Under the pieces are notes generated by a model. That model was not told where the DNA came from and did not search any database. It saw nothing but the letters and a program-made list of their open reading frames with translations. This document shows, piece after piece, positions 43,153 to 48,405 of a DNA stretch of 64,000 bases (positions are counted from its first letter, which is position 1; every line of letters starts with the position of its first letter). The position numbers and the translations under genes were made by a program. Origin of the DNA: an uncultured Methanomassiliicoccales archaeon (GTDB taxonomy: Archaea; Thermoplasmatota; Thermoplasmata; Methanomassiliicoccales; UBA472); NCBI GenBank assembly GCA_963695345.1, contig OY968769.1, forward strand, positions 992,001 to 1,056,000, written 5' to 3'.

Positions 43153-44048
43153 TCCTTCACCCCCTTGACCATCTCGATGGCGTTCACCGGGCACACCTGA
43201 GCGCATACGCCGCATCCTTTGCAGTAACGGAAATCCCACTTCTCATAGTCGTCCTCAAGGCGGTGGATGCAGCCCTCGGGGCAGCTGAACCAGCAGCGCA
43301 GGCATCGGATGCACTTCTCCTTCAGGTAATGGGGCGAGCGGGTCCTCCAGGTGCCGGTCATGTTCTGCCAGGAGCTGCCCGGTCCGACGTTAATGTTCCC
43401 GTACGATTCTGATGGCAACGTGACTCCGATCGGTATGTCCTGCCAGTTCGGAAGCCACATCTCGCGGTGGACGATCTCCCGATTGCCTTGGCATATCCCT
43501 ACCTTGGTCCGGTCGAACGATGCTTGGGCAGCCGCGGAGTTGATCTCCGCCGCCTGGGGGCCAAGCCTTTCCCCAAACCGGTCCACTATCGCCGCCCTGA
43601 TCGAAGCCAGCGAGACCATGTCCTGGACCTTCGCCATCGATCCCAGGATGGACGTGTTAACGATGGGGGCCTTGATGTGTTCCAGGGCGACGGAGGTGGC
43701 ATCGACGACGGCGCAACGCACGGAAACGCCTAGGTCCACTTCCGAGGGCTCCTTCCTGGTGTTGACGACCGCGGAACCGTCCGATTTCAATCCTTCCCCC
43801 ACCGGGTCGATGTCCACCAAAGACTCGTCCAGAACGACGATCATATCTGGCCGGTAGATCTGGGACTTGATCCTGATCTTTTGGTCGTCGATGCGGGCGA
43901 ACGCCCTCACTGGGGCACCGCGTCTTTCAGCGCCAAAAAAGGGAAACGCCTGGGCCTCCAGACCCTCGATGACCGCCGCCTCGGCAAAGGCCTGAGCTGC
44001 CATGACCGCGCCCTGACCCCCCCGACCATGAAAACGAACCTCGAACAT
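43146..44048 (-). CDS. 2-oxoacid:ferredoxin oxidoreductase fused gamma-delta subunit
   Basis: HGRGGQG and FGAERRGAP (gamma) in frame with TGTWR..P, CIRCLRCWFSCP and CKGCGVCAQVCP (delta, 2x[4Fe-4S]). Confidence 0.92.
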   Translation of the reverse strand: MFEVRFHGRGGQGAVMAAQAFAEAAVIEGLEAQAFPFFGAERRGAPVRAFARIDDQKIRIKSQIYRPDMIVVLDESLVDIDPVGEGLKSDGSAVVNTRKEPSEVDLGVSVRCAVVDATSVALEHIKAPIVNTSILGSMAKVQDMVSLASIRAAIVDRFGERLGPQAAEINSAAAQASFDRTKVGICQGNREIVHREMWLPNWQDIPIGVTLPSESYGNINVGPGSSWQNMTGTWRTRSPHYLKEKCIRCLRCWFSCPEGCIHRLEDDYEKWDFRYCKGCGVCAQVCPVNAIEMVKGVKEW

Positions 44049-44229
44049 GTCACAACTCTGGATTACAATTGGACATGTAAGTATATAATCCTGCACTGGC
44101 CAGTTCGATAGTACTAAATATAGATTAAATAAGGAGGTCGTCACCGTCCGGTTTAAGGGATGGACCGAAAGGCATGACCGTCATAAAATTAAGAATGGGT
44201 TTGACCCCCTTCAGGGCAGTGATGAAGGG

Positions 44230-45156
44230 TCACTGGACGTAGTCCAGCCAGGACTCGTACATCGGGTCCTTGCCATTCACCGCGGCGCTGAAGGTCTGCT
44301 GCAGCTGCTTGGTTATCGGTCCAGACTTGCCCGATCCGATCGATATGTCGTCGATGTAGCTGATCGGGGTGATCTCGGCGGCCGTCCCGGTCATGAAGAC
44401 CTCATCGGCCAGATAGAGCTCGGAGCGGGTCATCGACTTCTCGACGATATCGTAACCAAGGTTCTTGGCGATGGTCGAGACAGAGTCGCGGGTTATTCCC
44501 TCCAGTATCCCGGCGGATATGGGCGGGGTGTAGAGCACTCCCTTCTTGACCATGAAGATGTTCTCCCCGGTCCCCTCGGCCACTTCGCCGTCGGCGTTGA
44601 GCATCAGCGCCTCGTCGAAGCCGCGGTGCACCGCTTCCAGCTTCGCGACCACCGAGTTGATGTAGTTTCCGCATATCTTTGCGTTAAGCATGGCGGAACG
44701 GTTCCCCGGCTTCTCCCAGGTCGAGGTGATGATCTTGGCACCGGACTCCAGCTGTTCCTGGCCCATGTAAGCGCCCATATGCGTCGCGACGATGGAGACC
44801 CGGGTCGGCATCTTGGTCGGGTTCAGTCCGATCTTGCCCTCCGGGTTCGCCCCGTAGTAGGCCAACGGCCTGAGGTAATCGTCCTCCGGCCGGCTGGCCC
44901 GAACGACCGCCTTGGACGCCTCGCATAGCTCCTCCATCGTGAACGGGATGTTCAGCCAGATGACCTTGGCGGAATTGTAGAACCGGACCATGTGCTCCTG
45001 CAGACGGAAGATCGCCTTGCCCTTGGGAGTGTTGTATATACGGATCCCCTCGAACACACCGCCTCCATAGTGCAATCCATGGGTCAAGATGTGCACGTTC
45101 GCCTCATCCCAGTTCACCAGCTTTCCATCCATCCATATCTTTGATTTGTTTGTCAT
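44230..45156 (-). CDS. ilvE: Branched-chain amino acid aminotransferase
   Basis: HGLHYGGGVFEGIR, AKICGNY, EGTGENIF, ILEGITR, TGTAAEITP. Confidence 0.96.
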   Translation of the reverse strand: MTNKSKIWMDGKLVNWDEANVHILTHGLHYGGGVFEGIRIYNTPKGKAIFRLQEHMVRFYNSAKVIWLNIPFTMEELCEASKAVVRASRPEDDYLRPLAYYGANPEGKIGLNPTKMPTRVSIVATHMGAYMGQEQLESGAKIITSTWEKPGNRSAMLNAKICGNYINSVVAKLEAVHRGFDEALMLNADGEVAEGTGENIFMVKKGVLYTPPISAGILEGITRDSVSTIAKNLGYDIVEKSMTRSELYLADEVFMTGTAAEITPISYIDDISIGSGKSGPITKQLQQTFSAAVNGKDPMYESWLDYVQ

Positions 45157-45205
45157 TTTGAACCCTGCCTTTGAGATATTAATGATATGTTTGTCGGCCG
45201 CCGTA

Positions 45206-45578
45206 TCAGATCGCGTTGACCGCTTTTATGAATTTGTTAGGTTTCGCATTGTCGATCATGCGCATCGACCTCTTCGATGCTTCCGATGAGCCTTACCTTA
45301 CCGGAGGAGTTGCTCGCCAACGCGTATGATTCCTGCCTGGTCTCGTCGACCAGTTCGCACTGTATGATGTCGTGAAGTCGGGACAGCGCCTCCACCGACC
45401 TTTCCGCATGGACCTTGTCCACGATGGTCAGGACCACTCGCGCCTTTCCCGGGATCTCGCACTTGCCTACCACGATCGTTTCGACGTTGATCTTCCTCCG
45501 GGTGAACTCCTGGAGTATTCGCTGCATCACGCCGAACTCGTCGTTGACGACCATTGAGATTACCTGCATATTACTCAC
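45206..45578 (-). CDS. IlvN/IlvH-like ACT-domain protein (probable frameshift near 45262)
   Basis: VISMVVNDEFGVMQRILQEFTRRKINVETIVVG resembles the acetolactate synthase small subunit. Removing one base extends the C-terminus to ...KAVNAI* at 45206. Confidence 0.78.
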
Positions 45579-45832
45579 TCTTCCCTTTCTTCTTTGAACT
45601 GGATGATGTCGATGAGACTTCGTAGTTGCGAACCGAATGGTTCTTCTTTATCGGGATGATAGTAACCATCATCGCTGGCTCCGTTGTCATTCCCCTTGGG
45701 GTACTTCGGGGTCGACAGCCAGGACATCGAGAACTGCCCGTCGTCATCGTTCATTACGTGCTTCGGTTTCTTCCTCTCGCCTCCCGCGACCATGCCGGAG
45801 ACTAAGAACTTGAGCATGATTTTTGATACCAT
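45575..45832 (-). CDS. Uncharacterised 85-aa protein, coupled to the ACT gene
   Basis: AGAAGGA upstream of ATG; its TGA overlaps the ACT gene GTG (GTGA). Confidence 0.6.
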   Translation of the reverse strand: MVSKIMLKFLVSGMVAGGERKKPKHVMNDDDGQFSMSWLSTPKYPKGNDNGASDDGYYHPDKEEPFGSQLRSLIDIIQFKEEREE

Positions 45833-45887
45833 AGGCTATTCCTTCTAAGCGATGGTTAGGGACAGACCCTCGGGGGAGCCTCCCTTT

Positions 45888-45953
45888 TCAGATACCCAAT
45901 ACCAGCTGCTCGACCACTACGATAAGTACTGGAGTCTGAGCAACGCTGAGCAT
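45888..45953 (-). CDS. Putative Val/Leu/Ile-rich leader peptide MLSVAQTPVLIVVVEQLVLGI
   Basis: 12 of 21 codons are V/L/I. TATA box TATAAATA lies about 24-31 nt upstream, and the ORF precedes the ilvE operon. Confidence 0.65.
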   Translation of the reverse strand: MLSVAQTPVLIVVVEQLVLGI

Positions 45954-45973
45954 CGTCGATTGAATTGTAAGGA

Positions 45974-45985
45974 ATATATTTATAG
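45974..45985 (-). promoter_or_regulatory. TATA box of the leader-orf85-ACT-ilvE transcript
   Basis: Minus strand CTATAAATATAT, overlapping the upstream ABC ATPase stop codon. Confidence 0.55.
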
Positions 45986-46780
45986 GTTCTCATCGGGAGG
46001 CTCACACAGCGGTACTGGTTCCCTATACTCCCCCTCTTTGATGATTCTCTTCAGGAATGAACGTGTCCTTTCGTTCGTCGGGTTCGTGAATATGGTCTCC
46101 GGAGTGCCCTCTTCTGCGATTACCCCCTGGTCCATGAAGATGACCCGGTCGGCCACTTCCCGGGCGAATCCCATCTCGTGCGTCACGACCACCATGGTCA
46201 TTCCGGTGTTCAGGGCCAGGTCCTTCATGACGTCCAGCACCTCACCGATCAGTTCGGGGTCCAGGGCCGACGTCGGCTCGTCGAACAGTATGACCTTGGG
46301 GTTCATGGCGATGCACCGGGCGATGGCGACACGCTGCTGCTGCCCGCCGGACAGTTGGCCAGGATATGCGTCCGCCTTCTCTTCCAGACCGACCTTCTTC
46401 AAGGCCTCGATCGCCAGCCGGTCCGCCTCCTCCTTTTCAATGCTCTTGACCTTAAGGAGAGCCAGGGAAACGTTCTTCCTCACCGTGAGGTGCATGAAGA
46501 GGTTGAAGCTCTGGAACACCATGTTCATCTGCGTCCTGACCGCGTTGATGTCGATGTCCTCTAGCCGTCATGTCGTACGCCTTCGAACAGGACCTTTCCG
46601 CTGGTCGGTTCATTCAGCAGGTTCATGCAGCGGAGCAAGGTGCTCTTGCCGCTTCCGCTTGGTCCGATGATCACGACGCACCTCGTTGGGCATTATGCTT
46701 CAGGGATATCCCTTGGAGGACCTCGTGGTCCCCGAAGGACTTTTTCGAAGGTCCATGGTCTCGATGATCGGGTTCGCCAT
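45980..46780 (-). CDS. Polar amino-acid ABC transporter ATP-binding protein (GlnQ-like; several indels 46560-46760)
   Basis: [45 protein letters not shown]. Confidence 0.92.
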
Positions 46781-47465
46781 TCACTCACTCCCCATCATTC
46801 CTGGGATCGCGAACCTTCTTTCCACATACCTCATGATCCTGCGATGTGGAGAATGTTACGATGAAGTAAAGTATCGCTATGAAGATGTAAACGACGAACG
46901 GCTGGAACGTATGTGCGGATAACTTCCCTGCCTGCGAAGGTCAGCTCCATCACCCCGATCGCGAAGACCAGCGAGGAGTCCTTGATCATGGTGATGAACT
47001 CGTTGGTGTAGGAGGGCAATGAATTACGAAGAGCCTGGGGGATGATCACCTGGAACATGGACTGGTTGTACGTCAGACCCAACGACCGGGCGGCTTCCAT
47101 CTGGCCCTTGGGAATGGATTGGACCCCGCCCCTGAATATCTCCGCCTGATAGGCCGCGGTGTTCATCGCCAAAACGGCCAGTACCGGCGACGATGCGGGT
47201 CCAGGAATATCCCGAAAGAAGCGATGCCGAAATAGACCAGGAATATCTGGACGAGAAGAGGGGTTCCCCGGAACGCCTCGACATATACCGTCGAAATTCC
47301 ATAGATCAGCTTGTTCTTGGATATCCGTGCCAATCCGATCAGGATGCCACCGCCGAATCCGATGGAAATGGATACGGCGGAAATGATGAGGGTCATCACC
47401 AGTCCCGACATCAGATAGTTGAAATATGTAGGGATGACGGACCAGTCAAGAAATATATCTGCCAT
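46781..47465 (-). CDS. Polar amino-acid ABC transporter permease (frameshifted)
   Basis: YVEAFRGTPLLVQ, AYQAEIFRGG..SIPKGQMEAARSLG, IKDSSL. Confidence 0.92.
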
Positions 47466-47544
47466 GATGACGACCTCGGGTGCTCTTTTTCAATATGTCG
47501 TAGATGAATATAAAGGAAAAGGGTTTGGTGCGGCCTATCCTTGC

Positions 47545-48405
47545 TTAGGCCGCGTTGTACTTGTGCAGCAATGCCTGCAGAGAGCCGTCCGCCTTCATGT
47601 CGTTTATTACCTTGTTGATGGCGTTGCGGAAGTTGTCCTGGCCTTTCTGGATGCATATGCCGTAGTTCTCATTCGTCTCGACGACGAACGCTACCTTCAT
47701 GCCGTTACTGGCCGTGTTGGCATAGCCATAGGCCACCGGCGTATCGACGATGAACGCGGTCTTCTGTCCGTTCTGGACCGAGGTCGCCGCCGCTCCGACG
47801 TCTGTCGTGTCGGTCACGGTTGCGCCCCTACCAGAATCCACCAGGTTGGTCTTTGCCCACGAGGAACCGGTCGTTCCCAGCTGGGCAATGACGGCGCTGC
47901 CGTTCAACCCGTCGATGTTGGTGATCGTGCTGTCATCCTTGACCAACACTCCCTGGTTGGCCATGAAGTAGGGTACGGTGAAGTTCACGGTCTTTTCGCG
48001 CTCGGTGGTGATCGTTATCGATGAGATAGCCATGTCGATCTTGCCGGTCTGGACCGATGCGAACAGAGGATCGAAGTCAGACTTCTGGATCACAAGGGTG
48101 ACATTCAATGCGTCCGCCACCTTCTGGGCGATCTCCATGTCTATTCCCTCGAATTTCCCAGTGGTCAGGTTCTGATACTCAAATGGTTCGTACGGGACCT
48201 GGGTACCGACGATCAATTGACCGCGGGCCTGTACCTTTTTCAGAACGTCTGTCTCGCCAGGGTTCAGGAATCCTCCCAAAACAACGACTGCGATCAAAGC
48301 TACGACGACCACGACAACGATGCCGATCATCATCATCGGTTTCTTATTCTTCGCCTTCTTCAAGGAAGGCGCGGCTGACGGATTAGTATCCGTGGATTCT
48401 GACAT
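47545..48405 (-). CDS. Polar amino-acid ABC transporter substrate-binding protein
   Basis: N-terminal TM anchor, YEPFEY, GIDMEIA, SSITITTER, NFTVPYF. Confidence 0.93.
   Translation of the reverse strand: MSESTDTNPSAAPSLKKAKNKKPMMMIGIVVVVVVALIAVVVLGGFLNPGETDVLKKVQARGQLIVGTQVPYEPFEYQNLTTGKFEGIDMEIAQKVADALNVTLVIQKSDFDPLFASVQTGKIDMAISSITITTEREKTVNFTVPYFMANQGVLVKDDSTITNIDGLNGSAVIAQLGTTGSSWAKTNLVDSGRGATVTDTTDVGAAATSVQNGQKTAFIVDTPVAYGYANTASNGMKVAFVVETNENYGICIQKGQDNFRNAINKVINDMKADGSLQALLHKYNAA

Follow-up and report, generated by a model that had tools for sequence, protein, structure and literature searches.

The window analysed here (the whole stretch of 64,000 nucleotides, or 64 kb, from contig OY968769.1 of an uncultured archaeon of the order Methanomassiliicoccales) contains a short open reading frame (ORF) rich in codons for valine, leucine and isoleucine (V/L/I), which precedes an operon including the branched-chain aminotransferase gene ilvE. 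Judging from sequence comparisons, it is fairly probable that this ORF and the two RNA hairpins associated with it, P1 and P2, make up a leaderless, ribosome-read regulator of branched-chain amino acid (BCAA) operons, which senses the supply of BCAA-tRNAs via ribosome occupancy of P1 and P2. The anatomy of the leader, its conservation, the coding-type selection on it, the covariation of its helices and its association with particular genes are observed. An earlier note on this DNA had interpreted the ORF as the leader peptide of an attenuator. This interpretation is partly supported and has been considerably strengthened by the comparative data, and the mechanism appears to be non-classical. 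The genome is a single 2.56-Mb contig, in which the archaeal small-subunit (SSU) rRNA model was matched at full length with 1522 bits. Coordinates below are positions in the window unless marked 'genome', and both the leader and the operon are located on the minus strand. The parts of the leader are as follows.

45984-45977, minus strand: TATA box TATAAATA, an A/T-rich octamer of the predicted leader promoter
45953 (ATG) to 45888 (end of TGA), minus strand: leader ORF, 21 codons and TGA, with the product MLSVAQTPVLIVVVEQLVLGI
45953-45892, minus strand: P1 helix, pairing of ORF nucleotides (nt) 1-24 with nt 38-62, with a fold of -21.9 kcal/mol
45885-45858, minus strand: P2 hairpin with a G/C base, beginning 3 nt past the leader stop

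The leader is, by comparison of sequences, no chance ORF, and the decisive evidence is its conservation across other genera and families. All 41 related genomes yielded an ilvE gene, and 30 ilvE loci were fetched. A gene encoding an ACT-domain protein adjoins ilvE in 29 of them, the exception (L028) being a second ilvE paralogue. In 20 loci, all belonging to family f1 (eight genera), the ACT gene is preceded by orf85, the first ORF past the leader in the window, or by a shorter ORF. Upstream of it, every one of the 20 possesses a TATA box, followed after about 24 nt by the start of an ORF of 19-22 codons, which has TGA as its stop and a hairpin behind it. In the remaining nine loci (families f2, f3 and f5) the ACT gene directly follows ilvB. 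The region upstream of ilvB was fetched for seven of these nine, the other two running past contig ends, and the same type of element was found in all seven, 52-58 nt 5' of the ilvB start. Thus, comparable upstream ORFs (uORFs), whose absence from orthologous loci had been named beforehand as refuting the attenuator, were found in every f1 locus of this kind and in every ilvB-type region fetched.

The operon itself is rearranged among the families. In f2, f3 and f5 (L012, L014-L019, L024, L029) the order is leader-ilvB-ACT-ilvE, and in f1 (L001-L011, L013, L020-L027, L030) there is leader-orfX-ACT-ilvE and a separate leader-ilvB(-ilvC). This difference indicates that, as the operon was split, the leader was either copied or moved with it.

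A covariance model of the element, trained on 25 homologous leaders, matched 57 of 151 genomes of Methanomassiliicoccales, in five families. The counts per family, which leave out G000, are given below.

Family f1: 41 of 46 genomes matched
Family f2: 1 of 1 genome matched
Family f3: 4 of 4 genomes matched
Family f4: 0 of 1 genome matched
Family f5: 9 of 10 genomes matched
Family f6: 1 of 24 genomes matched
Family f7: 0 of 64 genomes matched

The model undercounts family f6, since two f6 genomes missed by it show, by eye, a diverged BCAA-rich ORF and a hairpin before ilvB. In family f7, inspection by eye of four ilvB upstream regions from three genomes revealed the leader ORF in none of them. 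Weaker second matches in genera g3 and g8, as well as the sole f6 match, are all located just 5' of ilvB. The genome under study also carries two further leaders, 5' of two tandem ilvB copies that are followed by ilvC.

Genome 1589264-1589196, minus strand: leader with a GTG start, 22 codons, 12 V/L/I residues
Genome 1587302-1587234, minus strand: leader with a GTG start, 22 codons, 10 V/L/I residues

Direct inspection of the same genome found no such ORF before two leuA-like genes, ilvD, hisG, trpE and the second ilvE. Outside the order, seven ilvB-like loci of other families in the same class or phylum showed no comparable ORF; four of these loci are only 33-35% identical to the query and are perhaps not true ilvB. 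An exact scan with the most conserved motif, using one genome per species (185,579 species), returned seven contigs, all of them from Methanomassiliicoccales. Wherever the context was examined, the element adjoins ilvB or ACT-ilvE and nothing else. Being absent from the other genes and from the outside-order loci checked, it is on this evidence specific to operons with ilvB or ACT-ilvE in a single order of archaea.

The composition of the ORF is less telling within a single genome. In the leader peptide, 12 of the 21 residues are V/L/I. The valine codons are GTA (three times), GTT, GTG and GTC (once each), and the earlier statement that all four are used, with GTA three times, was confirmed on the minus strand; the leucine codons are CTC, CTT, CTG and TTG, and both isoleucine codons are ATC. 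Among 953 ORFs of this genome having an ATG start, 12-40 codons and an A/T-rich heptamer at positions -38 to -16, only three, including this leader, reach a V/L/I fraction of at least 0.55. Once GTG and TTG starts are added, the leader ranks 8th of 3011 promoter-proximal short ORFs. Within this genome alone V/L/I richness is therefore rare, not unique, and suggestive only. The leader might then be a chance ORF within an ordinary promoter or 5' untranslated region, given that short V/L/I-rich ORFs do arise by chance in this genome and that seven candidates outrank it, mostly from A/T-rich DNA. Its presence in the 57 genomes and five families mentioned above contradicts this explanation, as do the coding-type substitutions and the covarying helices described below, and it is extremely unlikely. 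As a finder of further leader peptides, the scan of 3011 ORFs proved too noisy and was rejected. The top V/L/I-rich candidate, a 12-codon ORF at genome 2468365-2468403 (plus strand), was also rejected, having no same-strand gene downstream. That ORF is followed by a hairpin of -15.8 kcal/mol and flanked by genes of the opposite strand, and it is probably not a leader.

The substitution pattern of the homologues bears on translation. Leader statistics were obtained from 41 model-aligned sequences; two rows with a GTG start upstream of the aligned stretch were dropped, which left 39 distinct sequences and 36 distinct ORFs. Summed over the columns of the last ten codons, the entropy amounts to 13.2 at codon position 1, 9.1 at position 2 and 14.5 at position 3. 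The second letter is U in 277 of the 390 codons concerned and, in codon -3, without exception. Such conservation of U at position 2, unlike that of a conserved RNA sequence, points to selection for any of the three residues Val, Leu and Ile. The V/L/I fraction averages 0.70 in the last ten codons versus 0.28 in the earlier ones (39 homologues). In a codon-blind MAFFT alignment, the length is divisible by three for seven of eight distinct gap runs inside the ORF versus two of 12 past the stop. The rare codons are enriched as well. Of the 16 Val codons in the three leaders of this genome, 8 are GTA, the rarest Val codon, whose genome share is 10%, and of the 12 Leu codons 6 are TTG, whose share is 11%, with binomial probabilities of about 6e-5 and 8e-4, respectively; the genome shares come from 678 long open frames and are a crude reference, as the genes are uncurated.

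The stop codon also shifts in frame. In one genus TGA has become AGA (Arg), and the ORF then ends at the next in-frame TAG; a further genome has CGT (Arg) in this position. Loss of TGA with an in-frame TAG as the stop was found at five loci. Taken together, the conservation of position 2, the in-frame gaps, the in-frame stop shifts and the enrichment of rare codons argue for selection acting on translation of the ORF. The V/L/I-rich 21-codon ORF before orf85-ACT-ilvE is thus real and conserved, with a coding-type pattern of substitution, which supports this part of the earlier interpretation. Many ilvB-type leaders end with TGA and TAG in tandem and in frame (L032-L034, L036, L035, L037, L060, L062, L067, L068). 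TAG takes over as the stop where TGA is lost, and it seems to act as a stop here. Methanomassiliicoccales is an order known for pyrrolysine.

Selection on translation might also reflect a functional product, that is, a small hydrophobic peptide (a membrane micro-protein or a trans-acting one) co-transcribed with the ilv genes by happenstance. The peptide is hydrophobic, its length is kept at 19-26 residues, and the hairpin past such a small gene could be a mere 3' end. The N-terminal half, however, varies freely, and composition is kept where sequence is not. One genome possesses independent versions before two different BCAA operons, and the restriction of the element to the neighbourhood of ilvB or ACT-ilvE likewise speaks against a product of happenstance. 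It is very unlikely that the leader encodes a peptide of this kind.

Upstream of the leader ORF, an A/T-rich octamer was found 21-30 nt 5' of the start codon in 39 of 39 distinct leaders, at exactly 24 nt in 22 of them. In the window, a spacer of 23 nt separates the octamer from the ATG, and the octamer shares letters with the TAA stop (45982-45980) that closes the upstream ABC-ATPase ORF. A distance of about 24 nt is usual between the archaeal TATA box and the transcription start site. Since the start codon lies at that distance, a leaderless mRNA is predicted, and the transcript probably starts at or next to the ATG. The earlier suggestion of a leaderless uORF, with the TATA box 24 nt 5' of the start, is thus a probable one, predicted from the position of the promoter. 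The AT profile upstream of long ORFs gives weak evidence only on the frequency of leaderless genes in this genome. Two more promoter motifs are kept across families, a GACAA-like word just 5' of the TATA box and, some 10-14 nt ahead of the start codon, an ATAC-like one (window 45964-45995, minus strand). They could be a transcription factor B recognition element (BRE) and a promoter-proximal element, or a site for a transcription factor acting beside the leader.

Two helices recur alongside the ORF. In P1, a 5' stretch of the ORF (about codons 2-6, often encoding Ala, Ser or Pro) pairs with a 3' stretch containing the S-x-Q/R codons, and the loop holds the first cluster of BCAA codons, in the window copy the central VLIVVV codons. 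According to the fold, the start codon lies inside the P1 helix in the copies of this genome. The 5' and 3' halves of the ORF are more complementary than in shuffles, with a mean z of -1.34 and a negative z for 33 of the 36 distinct ORFs. P2 starts 0-4 nt (median 2) after the stop in all 39 distinct homologues, and has 8-14 base pairs (bp) and -11 to -21.5 kcal/mol, with a mean z of -2.14 and with z below -2 in 22 of 39. Among 39 P2 hairpins, 37 sequences are different: the base is a conserved GGGGA/UCCCC-like pairing, and the inner stems and loops differ freely. The linker between P1 and P2 comprises the last four or five codons, nearly always V/L/I/G, and is a U-rich single strand. The whole leader is compact, with only about 120 nt from its start to the next gene.

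All eight core pairs, four in P1 and four in P2, change on both sides. Of the core-pair cells, 92.8% are paired versus 49-66% when the partners are slid by 1-3 columns, and the observed values were reached in none of 500 shuffles; it counts against the proposal, however, that the alignment used for the pair counts was fitted to the structure model and that the genomes are related, not independent. As MAFFT alignments are not structure-aware, only the eight core pairs were counted column-wise, and the inner stem of P2 was assessed in each sequence by itself.

Such covariation of both P1 and P2 could also be expected if the leader were a structured 5' RNA bound by a protein or a metabolite, with the open frame incidental or secondary. 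The nucleotide conservation of the GGGGA/UCCCC base of P2 and of the linker across families agrees with this, and the conserved promoter-proximal motifs hint at added control by a transcription factor. However, an RNA of this kind leaves aside the three-base periodicity, the frame-preserving gaps, the in-frame shift of the stop and the fixed distance of the start codon from the TATA box. The P2 loops are unconserved, and therefore there is no core resembling a ligand pocket. An Rfam scan of positions 44000-48000 with E values up to 10 found no family at the leader and gave two chance-level matches elsewhere in that stretch. An RNA acting apart from translation is quite unlikely.

For the ribosome-read sensor the following sequence of events can be proposed, in which translation of the leader, the sensing of tRNA, and both the sign and the kind of output are inferred. 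The transcript would start about 24 nt past the TATA box, at or next to the ATG, and a ribosome would load at the 5'-terminal start codon and translate about 21 codons. Because the last ten codons are about 70% Val, Leu or Ile, often in codons rare in this genome, the speed of the ribosome on them would report the supply of charged BCAA-tRNAs. P1 would fold the ORF on itself and bury the start, and any translating or stalled ribosome would open it. The footprint of a ribosome extends about 12 nt 3' of the A site, and with this reach a ribosome would have to stand on the stop or on one of the final one or two codons to melt P2. Where the ORF is free of ribosomes, P1 and P2 would both fold, hiding the start codon. 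As the spacing of 0-4 nt between the stop and P2 is kept in every lineage, the meeting of P2 with a ribosome at the end of the ORF seems to be the point of the design.

The best guess for the output is direct occlusion, a ribosome held at the stop-proximal BCAA codons keeping P2 unfolded, much as was proposed for the ilvB leaders of actinobacteria (PMC1262725). P2, or possibly the folded module of P1, linker and P2, would be inhibitory, acting on elongation or termination (read-through), on downstream initiation or on survival of the mRNA. By pure inference, the opposite sign is just as conceivable, with P2 as a positive element such as a barrier to 5'-to-3' decay, undone by repeated termination events. 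P1 would serve as a hairpin that shields the start and synchronises, which is the role proposed for hairpin H1 of the Corynebacterium glutamicum ilvBNC leader (PMC11857589; this and the other published works referred to are drawn on in excerpts).

Several results have to be set against this proposal. Classical attenuators possess regions 1-4, whose 2:3 and 3:4 helices exclude each other, and a terminator made of a hairpin and a U-tract. In the leader, the P2 5' arm pairs with the 3' half of the ORF with a mean z of +0.30 and with the 5' half with a mean z of -0.16, and z for its pairing with the linker ranges from -1.2 to +1.6. For the P2 3' arm and the following 55 nt the mean z is +0.08, with 3 of 39 values below -1.5, all in one genus. 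Exceptions are confined to single lineages: the 5' half of the ORF with the P2 5' arm in genus g5 (z of about -2), the P2 3' arm with early ilvB codons in genus g16 (z of about -2), and the linker with the P2 arm in genus g7 (-12 to -14 kcal/mol). In these folding models P1 and P2 are independent hairpins, and no mutually exclusive terminator and antiterminator helices were detected. The earlier note had described a post-stop GGGA that can pair with either a proximal or a distal UCCC. The sequence is present and folds as the hairpin 45885-45858, but the switch is not conserved: a proximal UCCC partner occurs only in the copy of this genome, and close relatives have other letters there.

Nor does P2 resemble a terminator. 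A run of at least four U within 10 nt past P2 was found in none of the 39 sequences, in line with the U-tract being reported as absent from the single copy seen earlier. UUU at the end of the P2 stem occurs only in genera g8 and g3, and at L007 a run of five U spans the boundary. In this genome, runs of five or more T were present in 103 of 1358 intervals of 60 nt past long open frames versus 8 in coding controls, and stable hairpins are not enriched past long open frames (mean of -13.7 versus -15.9 kcal/mol). P2 as a standard terminator was rejected, the gene ends of this genome being marked by T-runs, not hairpins. Because gene ends carry T-runs and P2 is without a U-run, P2 is unlike the usual terminator of the organism, and the earlier suggestion that the output need not be intrinsic termination is borne out. 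Folding of the leader with and without a ribosome, modelled at each codon in seven ilvB-type leaders, revealed no consistent change in the accessibility of the downstream Shine-Dalgarno (SD) sequence and start.

The predicted sign of the response is a further difficulty. A stall at an early BCAA codon would leave P2 intact, and a finishing ribosome would melt it, which under tight coupling would make the operon 'on when replete'. This is the wrong sign for ilvB, and it would suit a catabolic ilvE-oxidoreductase operon. In addition, mutation of the candidate regulatory codons in the ilvB leader of Streptomyces coelicolor had no effect, according to the excerpts (PMC1262725); a BCAA-rich leader ORF is therefore no guarantee of attenuation.

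The same geometry bears on a reading in which the ORF is translated and cis-acting without being a sensor of tRNA charging. As with TnaC or the arginine attenuator peptide, the nascent hydrophobic C-terminus might arrest the ribosome once it has reached the stop codon. Alternatively, P2 might be opened when translation is completed, with the operon turned on by positive coupling. With a gap of 0-4 nt only a finishing ribosome touches P2, the geometry of coupling favours 'on when translation completes', and the window operon, with its importer, ilvE and 2-oxoacid oxidoreductase, could be read as catabolic. There is also a recurring C-terminal pattern, consisting of a hydrophobic run, S-x-Q/R and four hydrophobic residues. 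What is conserved, however, is the class of residue (U at position 2), not its identity, and the S-x-Q codons are accounted for by the 3' arm of P1. The same type of leader stands before the biosynthetic ilvB-ACT-ilvE and ilvB-ilvC, and the enrichment of rare codons fits a charging sensor. A cis-acting ORF that senses no tRNA is unlikely, if not negligibly so, and the charging sensor remains the preferred reading.

Enterobacterial attenuators (trp, his, leu, ilvGMEDA, ilvBN) have a leader peptide with cognate codons 5' of a biosynthetic operon, and their sensitivity, like that proposed here, would come from ribosome stalling. The archaeal leader is similar to them in having an ORF that is rich in codons for the end products of the pathway and lies 5' of a biosynthetic operon. 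It differs in that the exclusive helices and the hairpin-plus-U terminator were looked for here and not found.

In function, the bacterial ilv leader peptides, above all the leaderless actinobacterial ones, and the leaderless poly-Cys short ORFs of mycobacteria come nearest to the archaeal leader. Leaderless ilvB leader peptides are described, in the excerpts available, for actinobacteria: IlvL of C. glutamicum ilvBNC (PMC11857589) and candidates in Mycobacterium and Streptomyces (PMC1262725). In the latter work, runs of I/V/L codons overlapping a hairpin are reported and occlusion is proposed from sequence analysis. As far as these excerpts go, the archaeal leader shares with them a short I/V/L-rich ORF at or next to the transcript start (predicted here), without a ribosome-binding site and 5' of ilvB-ilvN, a first hairpin over the start region (here P1), and I/V/L codons beside or over a downstream hairpin, though here only the last one or two codons are within ribosome reach of P2. 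The bacterial C. glutamicum leader, by the same source, is 292 nt long, with a three-hairpin model of terminator, antiterminator and anti-antiterminator and with poly-U terminators. In contrast, the archaeal leader has about 120 nt, two independent hairpins, no detectable alternative pairing, no U-tract in most lineages, and a TATA promoter.

Polycysteine leaderless short ORFs of mycobacteria are presented, in the part of the preprint consulted, as translational attenuators, whose Cys codons pair with the SD region of the next gene (bioRxiv 10.1101/834739). The archaeal leader resembles them as the leaderless (predicted here) first ORF of an operon, with regulatory codons at the 3' end and no intrinsic terminator needed; in contrast to that account, its downstream SD was not found to be consistently paired or masked. 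Having neither alternative helices, nor a hairpin-plus-U terminator, nor SD masking, the leader seems to work like a leader-peptide sensor and yet is filed with neither the classical attenuators nor the mycobacterial SD-masking type. The excerpted text of an archaeal ribosome-profiling paper mentions uORFs in general terms only. No archaeal amino-acid leader peptide or ribosome-mediated attenuator was found in the full-text literature accessible in part, with supplements and subscription journals outside its coverage, and an older report may have escaped.

It seems to us evenly balanced whether this would be the first ribosome-mediated amino-acid-sensing leader (an attenuator in the broad sense) in Archaea, namely a leaderless BCAA micro-ORF whose ribosome directly gates two autonomous hairpins, one over the start codon and one next to the stop, without a terminator/antiterminator switch, the element having been copied to two or more BCAA operons and having persisted in several Methanomassiliicoccales families. 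In bacteria, as textbooks describe, leader-peptide attenuation follows from the coupling of transcription and translation, and such coupling occurs in archaea as well. The leader is a concrete, conserved archaeal test case of which nature supplies variants: it stands in two operon contexts and has three copies in one genome, and some families possess it while others do not. From it one could learn how archaeal RNA polymerase, termination factors and leaderless translation are used for control at the level of metabolites. Its build is non-classical, with no antiterminator, no U-tract and a hairpin in contact with the stop, and suggests a mechanism that has yet to be described. The leader also offers a handle on the control of BCAA synthesis in gut and wetland methanogens.

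The genes neighbouring the leader in the window are listed below.

46528-45980, minus strand: ATPase of an amino-acid ABC transporter, C-terminal piece (PF00005), the gene being split in the assembly
45832-45575, minus strand: orf85, first ORF past the leader, small, with a hydrophobic N-terminus and no Pfam match
45578-45237, minus strand: ACT-domain protein, IlvN-like, of the acetohydroxyacid-synthase small-subunit type (PF22629, E 2.6e-13), with ATG 45569 as the likely start
45156-44230, minus strand: ilvE, branched-chain aminotransferase (PF01063, E 4.6e-48)
44144-43146, minus strand: gene of a 2-oxoacid:ferredoxin oxidoreductase subunit (PF01558 and 4Fe-4S domains)
43239-41980, minus strand: candidate second 2-oxoacid:ferredoxin oxidoreductase subunit, its identity taken from reading of the translation

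The oxidoreductase genes 3' of ilvE might share a transcript with it. A similar oxidoreductase ORF is located 3' of ilvE in another genus (L075), and the same ABC transporter lies 5' of the leader in most related loci. An importer upstream and an oxidoreductase downstream could tie the transamination of BCAA to oxidative or reductive metabolism of 2-oxoacids.

Homologues of orf85 were found in 13 of 30 ilvE loci, and its last 20 or so residues align in a different frame in close relatives. In genera g5-g7 a shorter Arg-rich ORF replaces orf85 and overlaps the ACT start. The ABC ATPase and permease genes 5' of the leader (45980-46674 and 46831-47465, minus strand) are each broken into two ORFs. 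Both ilvB copies (genome 1585444-1589135) are likewise split, and the genes of relatives are intact. The genome consists of one contig, yet is 85% 'complete'. Split genes may reflect either many indel errors in the assembly or many pseudogenes in the genome. Finally, an open frame of 272 codons runs antisense to the leader and the ABC-ATPase ORF (45852-46670, plus strand); its translation is of low complexity, and it is probably not a gene.

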